Source of the DNA: a virus
Lineage: Duplodnaviria; Heunggongvirae; Uroviricota; Caudoviricetes
Length of the DNA stretch: 17,384 nucleotides
IMG/VR virus record: IMGVR_UViG_2675903433_000036
Coordinates: 1-17,384 of that record
Reading direction: 5' to 3' (one strand)
Shown here piece by piece: positions 2,891 through 17,384 of this stretch. The position numbers and the translations under genes were made by a program. The notes under the pieces were generated by a model, which searched no databases, was not told the origin of the DNA, and saw only the letters and a list, made by a program, of their open reading frames with translations. Each line of letters opens with the position of its first letter. The first letter of the stretch is position 1.

Positions 2891-3046
2891 TTACTCCTCA
2901 GGTTCGTAAGCTGTGAAGACAGCGACCTCCGTCTGGCCGGTTCGGATTCGTACCTCGCAGAGGTCTTTCCTCGTTACCAGTGCCGTCACTATGACGGTTA
3001 AACAGATGACGATCAGGGCGACTAACATCGCCTTTTGCTGCTTCAT
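2891..3046 (-). CDS. hokD: Hok/Gef-family membrane toxin (type I toxin), HokD/RelF-like
   Basis: 51 aa, MKQQKAMLVALIVICLTVIVTALVTRKDLCEVRIRTGQTEVAVFTAYEPEE: single TM helix plus the conserved C-terminal hok motif, nearly identical to my recollection of RelF/HokD. SD AAGGAG 9 nt upstream of ATG at 3046. The 70-aa ORF-track version is an in-frame upstream extension. Confidence 0.85.
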   Translation of the reverse strand: MKQQKAMLVALIVICLTVIVTALVTRKDLCEVRIRTGQTEVAVFTAYEPEE

Positions 3047-3225
3047 AGCCTGCTTCTCCTTGCCTTTCGGCACGTAAGAGGCTAACCTACGTTTGTGAAG
3101 CATAGATTGGGCCTCAGATTAATGTTAAGCGTCTTGCAGGACGCGTAATGTTAACTGGGGCTTTTCTCTATCTGCCTTTTGGTGTTCATGCCTGAGGCAG
3201 ATAGCCTCAAGCACCCATTATGATT

Positions 3226-6599: not shown

Positions 6600-7340
6600 T
6601 CACATACCCTGACGTCCAACGTTTGACCGCCAGCTCTCCCAGTTAAAATTCACCCAACGCCCGCCGTTCATGGTCATGCGATCCATAATCCTCTCGCCGA
6701 GCAATGTTTTCATGGCCTCATAGCTCAGGTTTGTCAGCATCCCCACGCTGCGCATCGACGCTGTCCGGCGATCAACAATCTGGTGCAGCACCACCTGCTC
6801 GTTTTTTGTCTCGCGCTGAATGCCAATTTCATCAAGAACCAGCAGATCCACTTGGCACAGTTCCCGCAAAAATTTTTCGCCTGATTGCCCGTCGTCATAG
6901 CTGGCGTGTAGAGCACTCATGACATCAGCCACGGTAACCACAATCACTGTCTGGCCATCTTTTAGCAGGCGATTCCCGATAGCCGCCGCCAGATGGTTTT
7001 TTCCGGTACCAGGTTTTCCGCTGAACGCAAAATTTGTATACCCGGTCATCAGTTCATCGGCGATGGATTTCGCCTGGCTTAACGCGTATCGCTGGCCGTC
7101 GTTCTGCACCTGGTAATTCGCAAACGAGCATTTACGGTGCAACGGCTGGATGCCAGAGCGATTCAGAATTTTTTCCACCCGCAACTGACGATTCAGGCGG
7201 TTGATCTCCTCGCAACGTTTCTGTCCTTCAGCAAGTTGCCACTCACGCCACTCCGCAACCGTTCTGAATGGGGCGGTTACATGTGGTGGGGTCAGTCTGC
7301 GGATACGCTCCAGAACGCCGCCTGTCGCAATATTTTTCAT
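6600..7340 (-). CDS. ydaV: DnaC/IstB-like AAA+ ATPase, replicative helicase loader (P-like role)
   Basis: Walker A GKPGTGKNHLAAAIG and Walker B LLVLDEIG; 246 aa, directly downstream of the O-like gene. Symbol from recalled Rac synteny and length. Confidence 0.8.
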   Translation of the reverse strand: MKNIATGGVLERIRRLTPPHVTAPFRTVAEWREWQLAEGQKRCEEINRLNRQLRVEKILNRSGIQPLHRKCSFANYQVQNDGQRYALSQAKSIADELMTGYTNFAFSGKPGTGKNHLAAAIGNRLLKDGQTVIVVTVADVMSALHASYDDGQSGEKFLRELCQVDLLVLDEIGIQRETKNEQVVLHQIVDRRTASMRSVGMLTNLSYEAMKTLLGERIMDRMTMNGGRWVNFNWESWRSNVGRQGM

Positions 7341-7346
7341 GGTCTG

Positions 7347-8204
7347 TTACCCCCTGAAGCCTGGCGGGATCGCACTATCCGGTAGCGAAACGGTGTTAAC
7401 CTGTCGGAGTAACGTCTCAGGTCGAACACCTTTCGGCGCGAACAGGCCCTGGTATTCATTGGCGATACTGTGTCGAATCACCTGCTCGGGTGTAAAACCC
7501 TGCTGGCGGAATTTTTCCAGCTCCCGTATCGCCCCGTTAGCGCCCTGCTCCGTTCGAATCGGTTTTCGCAATGCCTGGCGAAATTCAACCCACTCACGCC
7601 AAAGCGAGACAGAAATCCAGTTCGGCAAAGCAATATCCAGAGGGTCAAACTTTTTGACACCTCGATTCCCCCGGGGGGGATTTAGGGGGGGATCTGTTTT
7701 TAGATCTTTATCTGTATCTTTATTAGTTGCCTTTGTGTTGACATCATGTTCAAACACCACTTCAACATCTGTTTGAACACCTGTTAAATTTCTCTCTTGT
7801 TTTTTTTGAACATCTGCTTCCTTTCTGCTTCTTCTGGCCTGAACAGATGCTTTTCCTGCGGCTGATTTTTTGGTTAATTTTTCCCTGACTGATGCCAGAT
7901 CTTCCTCAATCCGAAGATGCACCCATTCCTCGCCGTTATCGCAAAAAAACTCCTGCAAGGATGGTTCAACATCAGCCCATCGCTCGTTAGTCAGACGGGC
8001 AATTTTTGCCAGTCTGTTTTTAGGTATTGGCTTTCCTGTTTGCCAGTAATTGAACATCAGCAACAAATACGCACCATGCTCCTCTGCTGACAAATGCATG
8101 GTGTCAGCCAAGTAATCAGCTATGTACAGTTGCATGTATGGTAATGCGGCCATAATTGCCCCGTATGATGCTGCCCGGTGGCTTAGAATAAGCACAAACA
8201 GCAT
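7347..8204 (-). CDS. ydaU: replication initiator, O-like (YdaU/DUF1376-type), containing the candidate origin
   Basis: 285-aa ORF. The start is uncertain: ATG 8204 has no SD, alternatives at 8153 and 8135. A Lys/Glu-rich central linker is encoded by an AT-rich repeat-laden segment. Symbol from recalled Rac length and synteny. Confidence 0.65.
   Translation of the reverse strand: MLFVLILSHRAASYGAIMAALPYMQLYIADYLADTMHLSAEEHGAYLLLMFNYWQTGKPIPKNRLAKIARLTNERWADVEPSLQEFFCDNGEEWVHLRIEEDLASVREKLTKKSAAGKASVQARRSRKEADVQKKQERNLTGVQTDVEVVFEHDVNTKATNKDTDKDLKTDPPLNPPRGNRGVKKFDPLDIALPNWISVSLWREWVEFRQALRKPIRTEQGANGAIRELEKFRQQGFTPEQVIRHSIANEYQGLFAPKGVRPETLLRQVNTVSLPDSAIPPGFRG
7667..7852. repeat. iteron-like direct and inverted repeats plus C5/G7/G7 homopolymer tracts inside the O-like gene; candidate replication origin
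   Basis: CCCCCGGGGGGG at 7668-7679 and GGGGGGG at 7685-7691; palindrome GATCTgtttttAGATC at 7691-7706; ATCTTTAT twice; ATGTTCAAACACC and CTGTTTGAACACC; GAACATCTGCTT and GAACAGATGCTT. Confidence 0.45.
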
Positions 8205-8216
8205 GGAAACTTTTGC

Positions 8217-8639
8217 TTAATGAACAATGACAGAATCTTCGGAAGACCCGCCGCCGCTGAAATGCGCTTTCCGGTAAACGGCCTGGACTGCATCATCATG
8301 CGCATCAATTGCCGTACTCAACGCTTCCTGCGCCGCCAGTAATGCACGGCGTTCCAGGGTATCGAAGATGCAGAGTCGGTGACGCAGCTCGCGCGGAATA
8401 ATTGCCAGAACCGCAGGGATCAGTTTCTGAATTTTTTCCCTTTGCGCTTTCGTTTCACCTTTCAACCAACGGTGATAGATATTCTGCTGATTGTTCCAGT
8501 CCTTGCCTGGTACCAGGGGCAATTCGCCGCCCCCCTGGCGCAGATATTCTTCAGTAATTGCGTTAGCGACCCACGCCTGCCCTTTTTCGGCTGCCAGGGC
8601 TAACAACACTGATTCGATGTGCTCATGCCTGATTTTCAT
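8217..8639 (-). CDS. ydaT: YdaT-like protein (reported toxin partner of YdaS in Rac-type prophages); occupies the cII position
   Basis: 140 aa, SD AGGAG 8 nt upstream of ATG 8639; overlaps the Cro-like gene by 17 nt. Symbol from recalled length and synteny. Confidence 0.6.
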   Translation of the reverse strand: MKIRHEHIESVLLALAAEKGQAWVANAITEEYLRQGGGELPLVPGKDWNNQQNIYHRWLKGETKAQREKIQKLIPAVLAIIPRELRHRLCIFDTLERRALLAAQEALSTAIDAHDDAVQAVYRKAHFSGGGSSEDSVIVH

Positions 8640-8898
8640 GAATCAACTCCTGTGCATTTGGTGTGTTAGCCTTACATCCAACAGGTAAACCATCGGTCGG
8701 ATTCGGGTAGATATCAGGCCGGAGTTCATGAGGTGTAACCTCGAAATTCGTTACTTCAGCAACACGTAATGCTTTTTCAGGGCTGAATCTTTCATAGCCC
8801 CCCAGCACTCGACTTACATGCACCTGAGATAAACCCGTTAGCTTCCCAAACTGTAACTGGGTGATATGTTTCTCTTTTAAATAGTCTCTTAAGTTCAT
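8623..8898 (-). CDS. ydaS: Cro-like HTH regulator (YdaS-type)
   Basis: MNLRDYLKEKHITQLQFGKLTGLSQVHVSRVLGG is an HTH. ATG at 8898 with SD GAAGG; first gene of the rightward operon, divergent from the repressor. The ORF-track TTG start at 8904 is less likely. Confidence 0.65.
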   Translation of the reverse strand: MNLRDYLKEKHITQLQFGKLTGLSQVHVSRVLGGYERFSPEKALRVAEVTNFEVTPHELRPDIYPNPTDGLPVGCKANTPNAQELIHENQA

Positions 8899-8928
8899 AG
8901 CCAACCTTCTACGTTATGCCTCGAACAA

Positions 8929-8957
8929 ATATTAGCTCCACTAATTTTAAAGATCAA
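8929..8957 (-). promoter_or_regulatory. pR-like sigma70 promoter for the Cro-like operon
   Basis: Minus strand reads TTGATC (-35), a 17-nt spacer, then TAATAT (-10); predicted TSS near 8921, about 24 nt before the ATG at 8898. Confidence 0.5.
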
Positions 8958-8971
8958 CAGTCAGACTATCT

Positions 8972-8999
8972 TTGATAATATTGGTAAAACAAATAAACT
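8972..8999 (+). promoter_or_regulatory. possible pRM-like promoter giving a leaderless or near-leaderless repressor mRNA
   Basis: TTGATA (8972-8977), 16-nt spacer, TAAACT (8994-8999), ATG at 9006 with no SD, as for lambda cI from pRM. Confidence 0.3.
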
Positions 9000-9005
9000 C
9001 TATGT

Positions 9006-9467
9006 ATGAAAAAAACACGCGAAGTGATTGCAACTCCAGAAGCGAGCAAGAATTTAAAAGCCGCATGGAATGCAAGAAAAAAAGAGCTGAAGCTGACTCA
9101 AGAGCTGGCGGCTGAGTTGTTGGGATTCGAATCTCAAGGCACCGTTAGCCAGTATCTGAACGGCAAGATACCGGTAAATACCGACGCTGCGCTAAAATTT
9201 GCGGCTCTGTTAAAGGTAAAACCAGAGGACATTCGAGAAGACCTTAAAGACTTAATGAATTATGTAAGATCATCAGATACTTATGATGATAGCTTTTCAG
9301 GCAAAGGATGGAGGCTGGTCAATGAAGAACAGGCAGAGTTACTTAACCTCTTCGAGATTCTACCTGCGTCAGAAAAAGCCAAACTCCTTAACCAGCTACG
9401 TGGACTAAACAAGCTCTATGAGGAAGCCTTCGAGAACATGCTGGCACTAAAGAAACGTAACCAGTAG
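9006..9467 (+). CDS. racR: prophage repressor, XRE-family HTH, non-LexA-like (RacR-like)
   Basis: 153 aa; HTH LTQELAAELLGFESQGTVSQYLNGK; no peptidase S24 domain. Divergent from the Cro-like gene and followed by a terminator. Symbol is by analogy. Confidence 0.6.
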   Translation: MKKTREVIATPEASKNLKAAWNARKKELKLTQELAAELLGFESQGTVSQYLNGKIPVNTDAALKFAALLKVKPEDIREDLKDLMNYVRSSDTYDDSFSGKGWRLVNEEQAELLNLFEILPASEKAKLLNQLRGLNKLYEEAFENMLALKKRNQ

Positions 9468-9873: not shown

Positions 9874-10070
9874 ACAATTTATTGGATTAATTCAATATTC
9901 TTGCTGTAGGGGTATAGCCGAGGCCACCAAAGCCCGGAGGTGGTGAAATAAAACCGGGCACAACACGAAGGCGCATTTCCGATATCCATAAAGAGTCGGT
10001 CTTGTCTGTTAAATTTAAATGGTGGGAGTGCGCCTCCGGTTGTAAATAACGACATTGCTGTGTGTAGTCT

Positions 10071-10115
10071 TGGCGGCATCAGTTCTACTCCGTGGCTGCC
10101 CTGCCGCCCCTTTTT
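10071..10115 (+). terminator. terminator-like long-loop hairpin (tL1-like) within a 400-bp structured leader
   Basis: GGCGGCA (10071-10077) pairs with TGCCGCC (10103-10109), followed by CCTTTTTAAAG. Confidence 0.3.
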
Positions 10116-10578
10116 AAAGTGAATTTTGTGATGCGGTGAATGCGGCTGAGCGCACGCGGCACAGTTAAAAGCATCAGTGTTATGGGTGGATTATCCGGCG
10201 TTAATTGTTAACTGGTTAACGTCACCTGGAGGCACCAGGCACCGCATCAACAAAGTTCACTTCAGTGATGAAAGGTGAGAGAAAATGATGGATGTAGCTA
10301 TTGAAAACCAGAACGGGTGGAATTATAGTGCACCTGCACCTCATAAAACGGGTGCCGGGATTTGCACCCCGATGATCACTAGAGCGCATAACCGCGCCAA
10401 AGCGTTTTTTTTATGCGTAAAGCGCAGCCACATTCAGATTATGGTGGGGCGTATGGGGCCGTTTTCGGGCGGGCCGGATTCTCTAGTGACCGGTAGTGCA
10501 AACCCTGTACGTCTCACCACCCATGAGATTTGCACCTCCGGTGGTGAGTTTACCAACTTATCACTAGAGGCTGCCATC

Positions 10579-11651: not shown

Positions 11652-13682
11652 ATGAGTACTGATAAAGAAAATTACGCTCTGTATTGCGACGCGAAAAATG
11701 ATAAAACCAGAAAACGCCTCGGCATCAAAGGCGGCTTTTTCTGGACAGAGGCAAAAAAACTTTCTGTTGCGGTTTTACGCTGCATTGCTGCAATGGACGA
11801 TGCCGGATTTGACGAAGAGGATTTTAAAAAACCCATCCGCGTCCATTTACCCGTTGTGAATGACCTTCCACCGGAAGGTGTGTTTGATACTGAATTCTGC
11901 AACCGATACGAAAAAGGCGGAGAAGATGGTATCACAATGATACTTATCGCGCCCTCTCCCTCCGTGCAGGAGAAACCAGCCAGTACTGACAATACCAACG
12001 TCAACGGCGAAGACATGACGGAGATTGAGGAGAATATGCTCCTGCCGGTTTCTGGTCAGGAGCTGCCCATTCGCTGGCTTGCGCAACACGGCAGCGAAAA
12101 ACCAGTAACGCACGTTGCACGGGAAGAACTTCAGGCATTACATATAGCACGGGCGGAAGAACTGCCGGCTGTTACTGCCCTGGCCATTTCTCACAAAACA
12201 AAGCTGCTCGACCCGCTGGAGATTCGCGACCTTCACAAACTGGTACGCGACACTGACAAAGTTTTCCCTAATCCCGGTAATTCAGACCTGGGACTGATAA
12301 CTGCTTTTTTCGAGGCATACCTGGACGCTGACTACACTGATCGGGGTCTGCTGACAAAAGAGTGGATGAAAGGAAATCGTGTTTCGCGTATCACCCGTAC
12401 GGCTTCCGGTGCAAATGCCGGTGGCGGGAACAAAACCGATCGCAATCCGAATTTAGTACACACCTTCGATACGCTGGATGTGGAGATTGCAGCAGCCACA
12501 CTTCTGATGGATTTTAATATTTATGAAATTCCGGGCAGCGTTTATCGTCGCGCAAAAGAAATCGTCCTGAAAAGAGAAAGTCCGTTCAAAGAATGGTCCG
12601 CAGCACTTCGCGCAACCCCGGGTATTCTGGACTATTCCCGCGCCGCTATTTTTGCACTTATCCGGAGCGCTCACCCTGAGTTTTATCACTACCCGGGACG
12701 CCTTCAGGGGTATATCAACGCCTACTTAACGGAGACTGATCACGAGAACCCCAGCAAGGAAACTCTCACTGCTGCACGACATACACCGGAAAAAGATATC
12801 CTGGAAGAGGTTAACCGCGAACTGGCTGCTAAGCAGGAAACAGAAGAAGAAAATGATGAAGAAAAACCGCAACCATCTTGCGCAATGGCAGATGAACAGG
12901 CAACGGCTGAAACAGTGGAACCGGATGCAACTGAACATCATCAGGACACGCAGCCGCTGGATGCTCAGTCACAGGTAAATTCTGTTGATGCGAAATATCA
13001 GAAACTGCGGGCAGAACTCCATGAAGCCCGGAAAACCATTCCGCCCAAAAATCCTGTCGATGCCGACAAATTGCTGACTGCCTCTCGCGGAGAATTTGTT
13101 GAAGGGATTAGCGACCCGAATGATCCGAAATGGGTTAAGGGAATTGAAACCCGAGATTCTGTGAACCAGAACCAGCCCGAATCGGAACAAAACAACCAGA
13201 AAGCGGAACAAAACAGCCCAAATGCACAGAAAAACGAGCCAGAAACGAAACAATCTGAACCAGTAGCGCAACAGGAACCGGAAAAAGTCTGTGCCGCCTG
13301 CGGTCAGAGCGGCGGCGGCAACTGCCCTGATTGTGGCGCGGTGATGGGCGACACCACGTATCTGGAAACCTTTAATGAAGAAAATCAGAATGAATATCAG
13401 GAAAAAGGTCTGGAGGAAATGGAAGGTGCTGAACATCCGCACAAGGAGAACGATGGCAGCGATCCGCATCGCGATTGCAGTGATGAAACTGGCGAAGCAG
13501 CAGCTTCATCATTAGAAAAACTCGACTGGAAAAGACAAGTGGTGATTGCAGCGGTTTACGGTTTATGTGCAAATCCTGCGGGTATAGCCTCAGCGCCATT
13601 AATTCCGGGTATTGCAATGATGATTGCAAACAAACTTGAAAATTTTGGGGTGACGGATGATGAGTACATGCCCAATTTTTGA
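11652..13682 (+). CDS. large acidic protein of unknown function upstream of the Red genes (zinc-ribbon motif; possibly related to the RecE N-terminal region)
   Basis: 676 aa with SD GAGGT. Long Asp/Glu/Gln-rich low-complexity stretches, a [16 protein letters not shown] zinc ribbon and a hydrophobic C-terminal segment ([33 protein letters not shown]). Sits where racC-recE lie in Rac. No nuclease motif recognised. Confidence 0.7.
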
Positions 13683-13956
13683 TCGCATTGAAGAGCAGGC
13701 ATGGTCACGCCACTACCAGCAAATCGTTTGCGAAGAAAAAGAAACGGCGCTGGCGGACGACCTGGAAAAAGGTCTGCCCCAGCACCTGTTTGAATCGCTC
13801 TGCATCGACCATTTGCAACGCCACGGTGCCAGCAAACAGGCAATCAGTCGCGCATTTGATGACGATGTTGAATTTCAGGAACGTGTGGCGGAGCACATCC
13901 GGTACATGGTTGAAACCATTGCTCGTCACCAGGTTGATATTGATTCAGAGGTATAA
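13657..13956 (+). CDS. gam: Gam, host RecBCD nuclease inhibitor (lambda GamS-like)
   Basis: 99 aa, near-identical over most of its length to recalled lambda Gam (…RHYQQ…[24 protein letters not shown]…[12 protein letters not shown]…[12 protein letters not shown]…HQVDIDSEV). Confidence 0.9.
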
Positions 13957-13961
13957 AACGA

Positions 13962-14747
13962 ATGAGTACAGCACTTGCAACACTGGCCGGGAAGCTGGCT
14001 GAACGCGTCGGCATGGATTCTGTCGACCCACAGGAACTGATCACCACTCTTCGCCAGACGGCATTTAAAGGTGATGCCAGCGATGCGCAGTTCATCGCAT
14101 TGCTGATCGTCGCCAACCAGTACGGCCTTAATCCGTGGACGAAAGAAATTTACGCCTTCCCTGACAAGCAGAACGGCATCGTTCCGGTGGTGGGCGTTGA
14201 TGGCTGGTCCCGCATCATAAATGAAAACCAGCAGTTTGATGGCATGGACTTTGAGCAGGACAATGAATCATGTACATGCCGGATTTACCGCAAGGACCGT
14301 AATCATCCGATCTGCGTTACCGAGTGGATGGATGAGTGCCGTCGCGAACCATTCAAAACCCGAGAAGGCAAAGAAATCATCGGACCATGGCAGTCGCATC
14401 CCAAACGGATGTTACGGCATAAAGCCATGATTCAGTGTGCCCGTCTGGCCTTCGGATTTGCTGGTATCTATGACAAGGATGAAGCCGAGCGCATTGTCGA
14501 AAATACCGCATGCACTGCAGAACATCAGCCGGAACGCGACATCACTCCGGTTAACGATGAAACCATGCAGGAGATTAACACTCTGCTGATCTCCCTGGAT
14601 AAAACATGGGATGACGACTTATTGCCGCTCTGTTCCCAGATATTTCGCCGCGACATTCATGCATTGTCAGAACTGAAACAGGCCGAAGCAGTGAAAGCTC
14701 TTGGATTCCTGAAACAGAAAGCCGCAGAGCAGAAGGTGGCAATATGA
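13962..14747 (+). CDS. bet: Bet (Red-beta) single-strand annealing protein
   Basis: 261 aa, near-identical to recalled lambda Bet ([89 protein letters not shown]...). Confidence 0.92.
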
Positions 14748-15424
14748 CACCGGACATTATCCTGCAGCGTACCGGGATCGACGTGAGAGCTATCGTACAG
14801 GGGGATGATGCGTGGCACAAATTACGGCTCGGCGTCATCACAGCTTCAGAAGTTCACAACGTGATAGCAAAACCCCGCTCCGGAAAGAAATGGCCTGACA
14901 TGAAAATGTCCTACTTCCACACCCTGCTTGCCGAGGTTTGCACCGGTGTGGCTACGGAAGTTAACGCTAAGGCGCTGGCCTGGGGAAAACAGTACGAGAA
15001 CGACGCCAGAACCCTGTTTGAGTTCACTTCCGGCGTGAATGTTACTGAATCCCCGATCATCTATCGTGACGAGACTATGCGCACCGCCTGCTCTCCAGAT
15101 GGTTTATGCAATGACGGCAACGGCCTTGAGCTGAAATGCCCGTTCACCTCCCGGGATTTCATGAAGTTCCGGCTCGGTGGTTTCGAGGCCATAAAGTCGG
15201 CTTACATGGCCCAGGTGCAGTACAGCATGTGGGTGACGCAAAAAGATGCCTGGTACTTTGCCAACTATGACCCGCGTATGAAGCGTGAAGGCCTGCATTA
15301 TGTCGTGGTTGAGCGGGATGAAAAGTACATGGCGAGTTTTGACGAGATGGTGCCAGAATTCATCGAAAAAATGGACGAGGCACTGGCTGAAATTGGTTTT
15401 GCATTTGGGGAACAATGGAAATGA
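14744..15424 (+). CDS. exo: Exo (Red-alpha) 5'-3' dsDNA exonuclease
   Basis: 226 aa, near-identical to recalled lambda Exo ([16 protein letters not shown]...[36 protein letters not shown]...); ATGA overlap with bet. Confidence 0.92.
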
Positions 15425-15651
15425 GCGCAGCCATAAAGCTCACAGGAGAAAAACCAGTGCTATACACAAAAGTCAAACCATGTCCGTTTTGTGGTTGTCC
15501 ATCAGTAACGGTGAAAGCCATTTCAGGATATTACCGCGCAAAGTGTAACGGATGCGAATCCCGAACTGGCTATAGTGGAAGTGAAAAAGAAGCACTCGAA
15601 AGATGGAATAAACGAACTACTGGAAATAATAATGGAGGTGTTCATGTATAA
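15415..15651 (+). CDS. ralR: Lar/RalR-like restriction-alleviation protein (zinc-ribbon, CPFCG motif)
   Basis: [47 protein letters not shown] matches my recollection of the Lar family. Start at 15415 or 15421, the latter overlapping the exo stop. Confidence 0.5.
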
Positions 15652-15853
15652 AATTACTGTCACTATTGAAAAGGAAGGTGGCACTCCTACTAACTGGACA
15701 AGATATTCAAAATCTAAATTAACGAAATCAGAATGCGAAAAAATGCTCTCTGGGAAAAAAGAAGCAGGCGTTTCCAGAGAGCAGAAAGTAAAACTGATAA
15801 ATTTTAATTGCGAGAAACTTCAGTCCTCGAGAATTGCATTGTATTCAAATTAA
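15644..15853 (+). CDS. ydaC: small hypothetical protein (YdaC-like, 69 aa)
   Basis: ATG 15644 preceded by GGAGGTG; [35 protein letters not shown]... AT-rich. The ORF-track 92-aa version begins upstream in the overlap with the Lar-like gene. Confidence 0.45.
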   Translation: MYKITVTIEKEGGTPTNWTRYSKSKLTKSECEKMLSGKKEAGVSREQKVKLINFNCEKLQSSRIALYSN

Positions 15854-16148: not shown

Positions 16149-17384
16149 ATGTCTAAATTACCAACAGGTGTCGAGATTAGAGGTAGATACATTCGCATCT
16201 GGTTCATGTTTCGAGGAAAACGATGTCGGGAAACATTAAAAGGCTGGGAGATTACAAACAGTAATATTAAAAAGGCCGGAAATTTAAGAGCGCTGATAGT
16301 TCATGAAATAAACTCCGGTGAATTTGAGTATTTAAGACGTTTTCCCCAGTCCAGCACTGGGGCAAAAATGGTGACAACGAGAGTCATAAAAACGTTCGGA
16401 GAGCTTTGTGATATCTGGACAAAAATTAAAGAGACAGAGTTAACAACAAACACAATGAAGAAAACAAAATCACAATTAAAAACACTCAGAATAATAATTT
16501 GTGAAAGTACCCCGATATCACATATTCGTTATAGCGATATCTTAAACTACCGGAATGAACTGCTGCATGGAGAAACGCTTTACCTGGATAATCCAAGATC
16601 CAACAAAAAAGGAAGAACCGTGCGCACAGTTGATAACTATATCGCCCTGCTCTGTTCGCTGTTGCGTTTTGCGTATCAGTCGGGATTTATATCAACCAAA
16701 CCATTTGAAGGAGTAAAAAAATTACAGCGAAACAGAATAAAGCCTGATCCGTTATCTAAAACAGAATTCAATGCATTAATGGAAAGTGAAAAAGGACAGA
16801 GCCAGAACTTGTGGAAATTTGCCGTTTACTCAGGACTTCGTCACGGGGAACTGGCAGCTCTGGCGTGGGAGGATGTGGATCTCGAAAAGGGAATAGTGAA
16901 TGTCAGAAGAAACCTGACGATACTTGATATGTTCGGTCCCCCAAAAACAAATGCCGGGATCCGGACAGTAACACTACTGCAGCCTGCTCTTGAAGCACTG
17001 AAGGAGCAATACAAACTGACCGGGCATCATCGCAAAAGCGAAATCACCTTTTACCATCGGGAGTACGGCAGAACCGAAAAGCAAAAACTGCATTTTGTTT
17101 TCATGCCCAGGGTGTGTAACGGAAAACAAAAACCTTATTACTCGGTAAGCAGTTTGGGGGCAAGGTGGAATGCAGCAGTAAAACGTGCTGGTATTCGCCG
17201 TCGTAATCCGTACCATACGCGGCATACTTTTGCCTGCTGGCTGTTGACGGCAGGAGCGAACCCGGCATTTATAGCCAGCCAAATGGGGCATGAAACTGCG
17301 CAGATGGTGTATGAAATTTACGGTATGTGGATTGATGACATGAACGACGAACAGATAGCCATGTTGAATGCGCGGTTATCGTAG
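16149..17384 (+). CDS. int: tyrosine site-specific integrase (phage integrase family)
   Basis: 411 aa; C-terminal catalytic region with R...HxxR...Y spacing (NPYHTRHTFACWLL...GHETAQMVYEIYGMW). AT-rich, terminal position; the stop codon is the last triplet of the window. Confidence 0.9.
   Translation: MSKLPTGVEIRGRYIRIWFMFRGKRCRETLKGWEITNSNIKKAGNLRALIVHEINSGEFEYLRRFPQSSTGAKMVTTRVIKTFGELCDIWTKIKETELTTNTMKKTKSQLKTLRIIICESTPISHIRYSDILNYRNELLHGETLYLDNPRSNKKGRTVRTVDNYIALLCSLLRFAYQSGFISTKPFEGVKKLQRNRIKPDPLSKTEFNALMESEKGQSQNLWKFAVYSGLRHGELAALAWEDVDLEKGIVNVRRNLTILDMFGPPKTNAGIRTVTLLQPALEALKEQYKLTGHHRKSEITFYHREYGRTEKQKLHFVFMPRVCNGKQKPYYSVSSLGARWNAAVKRAGIRRRNPYHTRHTFACWLLTAGANPAFIASQMGHETAQMVYEIYGMWIDDMNDEQIAMLNARLS

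Follow-up and report, generated by a model that had tools for sequence, protein, structure and literature searches.

The window analysed here is the whole 17,384-nt stretch of the virus record IMGVR_UViG_2675903433_000036 (Caudoviricetes). It contains ydaU (7347–8204, minus strand; 285 amino acids (aa) as annotated; DUF1376, PHROG 6451), a putative replication-initiator gene. The segment 7668–7850, in the linker-coding middle of this gene, is probably the replication origin of a Rac-type lambdoid prophage and most likely oriJ. Judged from sequence comparison, we give this reading a probability of roughly 0.78. The first-pass annotation of the window had proposed a lambda-like origin inside an O-like initiator gene, and this proposal gained support: the repeats are conserved in homologues, they change with the N-terminal domain (N-domain) of the protein, and the gene stands at the ydaU locus of a Rac-type prophage. 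An origin of this kind was to be expected at such a place. What appears to be modestly new is the signature found across the family, together with the translation of one DNA word in three frames.

Repeats and A-rich DNA inside ydaU

The repeat array comprises six 12-bp units with the core TGTTCAA/TGTTGAA at 7738–7850 (gene nt 310–418). It was classed as an iteron array on the basis of the repeat analysis and of its position, which matches that of the array in the family. On the plus strand, the units start at 7738, 7749, 7761, 7773, 7806 and 7839, with a spacing of approximately 12, 12, 12, 33 and 33 bp. On the coding strand, they are located at gene nt 310, 343, 376, 388, 400 and 412 and have the consensus (c)AGATGTTCAAa. 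Direct and inverted repeats had been claimed for the middle of the gene, and both were found at 7738–7852, including the six copies of the 12-mer unit. The sequence TGTTCAAACA is present on both strands (7747–7756 and 7770–7779). The 12-mer GCAGATGTTCAA, which was picked after inspecting the region, had six matches with two or fewer mismatches in the 17.4 kb; five of them were in ydaU, all on the coding strand.

The array was then compared with related genes. The initial protein search yielded near-identical E. coli sequences only, and the diversity came from phage, genome and profile searches. The comparison covered eight phage loci and 80 genome loci from the family profile search, and the counts refer to 64 non-redundant DUF1376 genes. 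In these 64 genes, the exact palindrome GTTSAAC was found 114 times versus 6.8 times expected, corresponding to 2.06 per kb in the genes versus 0.13 per kb in the flanks. The majority of the copies were located at gene nt 331–450 (71 copies), followed by nt 181–210 (27 copies), and 43 of the 64 genes had at least one exact mid-gene copy. The most frequent spacing of successive copies was 11 bp (25 times), followed by 22 bp (8 times) and then 33, 44 and 55 bp. The array ranges from E. coli to Pseudomonas, Achromobacter, Acinetobacter and the alphaproteobacteria, in the same place and in 11-bp phase. The first-pass annotation had made its proposal depend on conservation of the repeats in homologous O-like genes, and the proposal passed this comparison. 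In the window itself, several copies in a regular helical phase are present as well, although the copies are degenerate.

Because 11 is not a multiple of 3, the mid-gene copies of GTTSAAC occupy all three frames (33/21/19). The conserved-looking peptide RST-x-VE-x-x-LN is one DNA motif translated in three frames. As one DNA word is read in three ways, the constraint acts on the DNA and not on the protein. An upstream pair of sites (nt 184/195, 11 bp apart) showed a bias in codon choice: its conserved Leu was encoded by TTG in 30 of 56 genes (54%), versus 172 of 1010 (17%) for the other Leu codons of the same genes. This TTG bias holds even in genomes of 60–65% GC. In the window, an exact GTTGAAC site at 7965–7976 (gene nt 184), upstream of the array in the domain-coding part, is the remnant of this conserved pair. 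A further, GTTCAAC-like site was seen at 8050–8061. Many relatives have such a site at gene nt 99, in the codons for the conserved M/F-F-N of FNYWQTG. It is either a binding site or a mere consequence of the protein sequence. In four loci (L117, L118, L121 and L122), DUF1376 is fused to a different body (...GYVYFI..IKIGYSKNPWARLSELR) and the mid-gene GTTSAAC array is missing. Hence, the array is tied to the initiator architecture and not to the DUF1376 domain as such.

On the coding strand, the 12-bp units are followed by the degenerate hexamer array AATAAAGATACAGATAAAGATCTAAAAACAGAT and then by C7-TAAAT-C7-G5. The degenerate hexamers AAAGAT/ACAGAT, A-rich on the coding strand, are located at 7692–7737 along with two GATC sites (7691–7694 and 7703–7706), and this stretch is a candidate DNA-unwinding element. 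Tandem Repeats Finder identified a degenerate period-6 array at 7704–7723. The GC content was 33–38% over 7700–7850 (33% at 7700–7799) versus 50–60% in the flanks; an A+T-rich, strand-asymmetric stretch adjoins the repeats. The claim that this AT-rich segment encodes only a Lys/Glu-rich linker was right about the base composition but not about the protein, as the units encode VQ, VE, FE and VN.

The variation within E. coli was examined in 41 haplotypes. The linker was the most variable part of ydaU, with many non-synonymous singletons, and gene nt 421–480 (the A-rich stretch and the C/G tracts) had the fewest variable sites in the gene. When compared with K-12 Rac, gene nt 241–500 of the window (array, A-rich stretch and tracts) differs in one base, which is a K-to-T codon change at nt 350.

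Tandem A-rich hexamers (coding strand) come directly after the array in every relative. They are (GATACA)n in gamma- and alphaproteobacterial members and (AACCAG)n in betaproteobacterial members. In the Bordetella/Achromobacter branch, the hexamers are followed by CCCCCTAACCCCCGCAAGCGGGGG. The order of repeats, A-rich stretch and then G/C block is seen in the window and in part of the family. The window repeats appear to be a worn form of this family plan, with 6/7 cores, 12/33-bp spacing, degenerate hexamers and longer C runs.

The protein is modular. YdaU belongs to Pfam DUF1376 (PF07120), with an E-value of 2.5e-26 and a score of 92.3 bits versus a curated cut-off of 30.1. All distant homologues begin with MAALPYMQLY, so the true start of ydaU is probably Met18 (ATG at 8153), and the annotated ATG at 8204 is probably too far upstream. 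The ATG at 8153 is preceded by a GGGG Shine-Dalgarno-like run. Numbered from Met18, the DUF1376 match spans aa 5–87 (aa 22–104 of the 285-aa open reading frame). The N-domain is encoded by 7830–8153 (minus strand) and presumably binds the repeats. Its predicted structure is a winged helix resembling origin-binding domains, and a long helix runs through residues 80–119 in the AlphaFold2 model. The C-terminal module (C-module) is encoded by 7347–7667 (minus strand) and begins at aa ~155 in Met18 numbering; it is presumed to recruit the helicase or its loader and has a DnaT-like tail. The repeats thus lie inside the gene, between the coding regions of the two domains.

In a translated search of phage genomes, residues 1–139 matched DUF1376 proteins of Rac-SA53 and of phages, including phages of Pseudomonas, Bordetella, Ralstonia, Acinetobacter and Moraxella. 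Residues 156–268 matched the C-termini of proteins named 'replication protein O' in Gifsy-1/2, mEpX1, N7, phiES15 and Klebsiella phages, and the C-module also matched PHROG 678 ('replication initiation O-like'). The repeats differed between these combinations of domains. In Rac-SA53, the N-domain is the same but the C-domain is unrelated, and the TGTTCAA units and the hexamers are kept. In the phage vB_EcoS-613R10, only the C-domain is the same; the N-domain is unrelated, and GTTAC/GTAAC repeats are present instead. Gifsy-2 has a lambda-O N-domain (TIGR01610) and a related C-domain, with lambda-type ATCCCCGAAAACGGGGA repeats at 22 bp. The repeat type follows the N-domain type, with three N-domain types and three repeat types on related C-modules.

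All three types run into an A-rich stretch with a AAAGATCT-like end, followed by C5-(T)TWAAT-C5. This common end means that there is a module joint between the A-rich stretch and the C runs. Within E. coli, megablast matches break at query 362–365 (window ~7708–7710), and recombination joints map to about 7692–7710. A connection of the hexamers with the DnaT-like C-domain was considered and rejected, because the hexamers co-occur with many different C-termini. The hexamers go with the N-domain instead. The window protein had no Pfam/NCBIfam match to the lambda O family (Phage_rep_O/TIGR01610), and the Gifsy-2 O protein, used as a control, matched at 5e-28. YdaU would therefore work like O without being a member of the O family.

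A course of initiation can be proposed from these parts. The winged-helix DUF1376 N-domain of YdaU would bind TGTTSAA sites, and the ancestral site would be the 7-bp palindrome GTTSAAC in 11-bp phase. There would be extra sites ~170 bp upstream in the domain-coding part, and the site at 7965–7976 is possibly bound too. Bound YdaU would assemble into an oligomeric complex like the lambda O-some, and this complex would strain and open the adjoining A-rich hexamer stretch (7692–7737), with the G/C runs on the far side. The C-module with its DnaT-like tail would bring in the host DnaB through the DnaC-like loader YdaV.

The C/G block and its length variants

The C5 G7 ATTTA G7 block at 7668–7691 forms the right-hand edge of the A-rich stretch and contains the first codons of the C-module (PPLNPPRG). 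The runs were found exactly as they had been described: C5 at 7668–7672, G7 at 7673–7679 and G7 at 7685–7691 on the plus strand. The coding strand of the block includes the palindrome CCCCCGGGGG and encodes DPPLNPPRGN. The C/G runs are part of the C-terminal module of the gene and not of the repeat array. All four Pro codons of the block are CCC, versus 13% CCC in the other genes of the window, and CCC or CCT is used at these Pro codons in related initiators too. For this reason, the runs look selected as DNA. They plausibly serve as the G/C-rich edge of the unwinding stretch. The form C5-WWWWW-C5 is retained in initiators with other N-domains, and CCCCCTAACCCCCGCAAGCGGGGG is present in Bordetella/Achromobacter. 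As a side observation, G7-ATTTA-G7 (7673–7691, plus strand, which is the non-coding strand) fits the G-quadruplex pattern G3-N1-G3-N5-G3-N1-G3 by eye. This pattern adjoins the presumed unwinding stretch and is not conserved, as the relatives have only G5 runs.

A comparison of homopolymer lengths among relatives had been proposed in the first-pass annotation, and the lengths proved to be stable. The wild-type 95-nt segment was matched exactly by 637 of the 745 complete E. coli genomes that have the segment. Full-length exact matches to length variants were rare: one for C6 and one for C8 in tract 1, six for C6 in tract 2, and two (plus two near-full) for C8 in tract 2. The upper bounds among the 745 genomes were 8 (tract 1 C6), 17 (tract 2 C6), 4 (tract 1 C8) and 8 (tract 2 C8). 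In total, ±1 variants accounted for ≤37 of the 745 genomes (at most ~5%), and 10–12 were confirmed over the full query. Among close relatives, C7/C7 was read in 82 of 83 sequences (72 by pattern match and 11 by direct inspection); this set was chosen via a full-length protein match and is biased against frameshifts. The one exception was a lab-derived K-12-type strain with C6, which is annotated as frameshifted.

With C6, tract 1 reads GAT CCC CCC TAA, which places a stop right after ...DPP, and a 173-aa protein with this end is present in the protein database. The ±1 variants that were checked carry a frameshifted annotation. In a weak sense, the earlier claim that the tracts could frameshift the initiator therefore holds: a few ±1 variants exist, against a large majority of wild-type lengths. 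The variants may reflect real slippage or long-read sequencing error. Slippage would yield occasional null or truncated alleles and not a regulated switch. A tract length that is commonly polymorphic, as in a phase-variable contingency locus, was not observed.

Counter-evidence and rival explanations

Several observations weigh against an origin at 7668–7850. Taken on their own, the window repeats are only moderately significant: a group of four GTTSAA/TTSAAC matches inside 70 nt arose in 11 of 20,000 simulations when the local composition was used and in ~5% of the whole-window simulations. They are convincing because they occupy the same gene position as the family-wide array. The repeats of the E. 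coli Rac lineage are degenerate, with 6-of-7 matches and no exact GTTSAAC in the array, and their spacing is 12/33 bp and not the 11/22 bp of the family. The family position weight matrix (72 mid-gene sites) scores the window units poorly; as the Rac lineage uses a derived consensus, this matrix was not used as evidence for the window. Moreover, 21 of the 64 family members have no exact mid-gene GTTSAAC. Matches to the DnaA-box consensus TTWTNCACA and to the oriC 13-mer GATCTNTTNTTTT were no more common in the window than in shuffled sequences, which also led to the rejection of a DnaA-dependent oriC-type origin. Two stretches starting with GATC were dropped as oriC-like 13-mers for the same reason, and one 13-mer-like match (7691–7703) is all the region holds.

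The published record of oriJ is a further point. According to the literature, Rac possesses an active origin, oriJ (PMC3945230). A location of oriJ at base-pair resolution was not found in the accessible literature. Potrykus et al. 2000 is reportedly a paper on oriJ plasmids. The only published oriJ coordinates located were those of primers for semi-quantitative polymerase chain reaction (PCR). These primers amplify 6929–7083, inside ydaV and 650–800 bp away from the segment, which speaks against an origin in ydaU. The amplicon is free of repeats, has a GC content of 51–56% and is not AT-rich. An origin in ydaV at the primer site was rejected, since neither repeats nor AT-rich DNA are present there. 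Any nearby amplicon would report copy number.

It is very unlikely that the repeats are a by-product of a low-complexity protein linker (xDVQ/xDVE, TD/KD dipeptides and a PPxNPP hinge) with no function as DNA. All window units are spaced by a multiple of 3 and are in frame, encoding ASVQ, ADVQ, TGVQ, TDVE, VVFE and HDVN. The long helix of the AlphaFold2 model and the high variability of the linker in E. coli, with its many non-synonymous singletons, would also fit a protein linker. However, the palindrome of the relatives stands at 11/22-bp spacing in three frames and gives three unrelated peptides (RST, VE and LN). The codon choice favours the motif (TTG at 54% versus 17%), also in GC-rich genomes, and the tracts use the rare CCC for all four of their Pro codons. 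Finally, where the linker and the C-module are otherwise homologous but the N-domain is a different one, the repeats differ as well. A role of the repeats in gene control is also unlikely, but less so. The repeats would then be sites of YdaU or of a regulator (autoregulation or handcuffing), and opening and helicase loading would take place elsewhere, e.g. in ydaV or in the ydaS-racR intergenic region. Plasmid repeat arrays commonly act in control. The published 'oriJ' quantitative PCR primers lie inside ydaV, and the racR-ydaS intergenic region is likewise AT-rich (32–34% GC over 8850–9050). The amplicon in ydaV has no repeats and a GC content of 51–56%, however, and copy-number PCR works with any nearby amplicon. 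Every relative has A-rich tandem repeats right after the array, which is the classic origin arrangement. In the recombination modules, N-domain, repeats and A-rich stretch stay joined.

It is very unlikely, as for the by-product reading, that the C7/C7G5 tracts act as a contingency switch. In such a switch, the initiator would be turned off, or a truncated regulator consisting of the N-domain only would be made, through slipped-strand mispairing or through a +1 slip of the ribosome on CCC-C. This would be in line with the ±1 variants of both tracts in complete E. coli genomes, with the C6 allele of the lab-derived K-12-type strain and with the immediate TAA after C6 in tract 1, for which the 173-aa protein is an example. 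On the other hand, exact wild-type segments (637 of 745) and C7/C7 (82 of 83) prevail. Long-read assemblies typically show single-base errors at G/C runs, so the variants may be unreal. Related initiators keep the element with shorter C5 runs, which means that conservation concerns the element and not the slippery length. A plasmid replicon was also considered and rejected: DUF1376 is rare as a plasmid Rep (14 of 72,556 records), and most of these records are large replicons of >200 kb.

An origin inside ydaU remains the preferred reading. It can be extended to a wider one, which we regard as doubtful at present. DUF1376 initiators would be a widespread, undescribed class of prophage origin, with an 11-bp-phased 7-bp palindrome in the initiator's own reading frame, running through all three frames. 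The hexamers, (CAGAnn)n in general form (GATACA/AACCAG), would not merely be easy to melt. They would be a sequence-specific single-strand recognition element similar to the DnaA-trio, bound by the initiator or by filament-forming DnaT-like C-domains.

The locus and its likeness to known systems

The ydaU genes of the window and of the E. coli K-12 Rac prophage share 98.8% identity, and ydaU is present in 1,506 of 5,426 complete E. coli genomes. The PHROG 6451 family that YdaU matches is described as 'primosomal protein'. The gene order racR-ydaS-ydaT-ydaU-ydaV is common to the window and K-12 Rac, i.e. the locus is the same. Homologues of ydaS and ydaT are located upstream of ydaU on the same strand, and a divergent repressor-like gene lies further on. 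Directly downstream is ydaV (6600–7340, minus strand), which encodes a DnaC-like helicase loader (Pfam IstB_IS21 and Bac_DnaA; NCBIfam NF009043 with 502 bits and DnaC with 304 bits; PHROG 50 'DnaC-like helicase loader'). YdaV is predicted to act together with the initiator.

In the K-12 reference record, YdaU is named only as a DUF1376 protein, and the Rac stretch examined has no origin feature. The literature on DUF1376 and on ydaU together with replication contained nothing on origins. The literature searched gave no sequence-level description of a YdaU-type origin and no link between DUF1376 and an origin. A scan for promoters and terminators over 7300–9100 gave nothing exceeding shuffled sequences.

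No Rfam family matched within the origin region. Elsewhere in the window, Rfam matches above the gathering score were obtained for RalA antitoxin small RNA (15650–15828, minus), sok antitoxin RNA (3041–3216, minus), DicF (10059–10109, plus), isrK (10336–10412, plus), C4 antisense RNA (10437–10524, plus), STnc100 (487–677, minus) and a partial tRNA-like sequence (764–823, minus). A recombination/integration module occupies 11652–15424 and 16149–17384. It comprises an Exonuclease VIII-like protein (676 aa), Gam, RecT, a YqaJ exonuclease and an integrase, which extends to the end of the window. As recE fills the corresponding position in the K-12 Rac stretch examined, the window comes from a mosaic Rac-like prophage and not from that of K-12.

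If the reading holds, base-pair coordinates and a testable anatomy are available for a candidate origin of Rac-type prophages. DUF1376 would be assigned a function as a predicted origin-binding winged helix. GTTSAAC at 11-bp phase, followed by A-rich hexamers, would be a DNA signature usable to annotate prophage origins in many proteobacteria. There is also a warning in these data: peptide motifs such as 'RST..VE..LN' and (TD)n/(NQ)n would be shadows of DNA elements.

With regard to oriJ, the ydaS-ydaT-ydaU-ydaV region of the window matches K-12 Rac. The difference is in the recombination module, where Gam, RecT and YqaJ stand in the window and recE stands in the K-12 Rac stretch examined.

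In lambda, the origin lies halfway along gene O and is built from iterons plus an adjoining AT-rich tract (PMC7466680). The candidate origin resembles that of lambda and the Stx phages in its location in the linker-coding middle of an initiator gene. The order in the direction of transcription is also the same, namely repeats, a strand-asymmetric A+T-rich stretch and a G/C-rich palindromic element. In both systems, the repeats are paired with the N-domain and the loader with the C-domain, and hybrids recombine at the junction. The two differ in the N-domain of YdaU, which is DUF1376 and not Phage_rep_O/TIGR01610, and in the repeats, which are a 7-bp palindrome in 11–12 bp units here and a 19-bp inverted repeat at ~20 bp in lambda. 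Moreover, the loader is DnaC/IstB-like and not lambda P, through which lambda recruits DnaB, and tandem hexamers make up the A-rich stretch.

Iteron origins of theta plasmids, including those of the staphylococcal pSK41-type RepA (PDB 4pta), share with the candidate origin the winged-helix initiators, direct repeats phased at 11 or 22 bp and an adjoining A+T-rich unwinding element. In contrast to these origins, the repeats lie inside the initiator's own coding sequence, and YdaU has no sequence similarity to plasmid Rep families.

The last comparison concerns DnaT. The last 19 residues of YdaU, RQVNTVSLPDSAIPPGFRG (7347–7406), were identical to the tail of E. coli DnaT, RDVNTVSEPDSQIPPGFRG, at 15 of 19 positions, and the rest of the phmmer alignment between YdaU and DnaT was weak (E-value 4.7e-4). 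The tail motif PD..IPPGFRG is common to DnaT and to phage initiators whose N-domains are of at least three unrelated types and whose C-domain bodies are of two kinds. The motif was located at 2777–2833 in Gifsy-2 (L008), at 2783–2839 in L003 and at the gene ends of L097, L100, L104 and L118. The string IPPGFRG was not found in the literature searched. A whole body similar to the DnaT C-terminal domain is present in the DUF1376 initiators of L097, L100, L104, L118 and Rac-SA53. When the helicase is reloaded, filaments of the DnaT C-terminal domain assemble on single-stranded DNA (PMC13377028). The window protein is convincingly DnaT-like in its tail only, and its N-terminal part is unrelated. 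Another difference is that DnaT is recruited by PriA and PriB and not via a specific DNA sequence. The shared tail may serve as a short peptide by which DnaB or DnaC-like loaders are docked, and DnaT would then use the same DnaB/DnaC-docking peptide. The DnaT-like tail is a hint at the way in which the helicase is recruited by these initiators and perhaps by DnaT as well.

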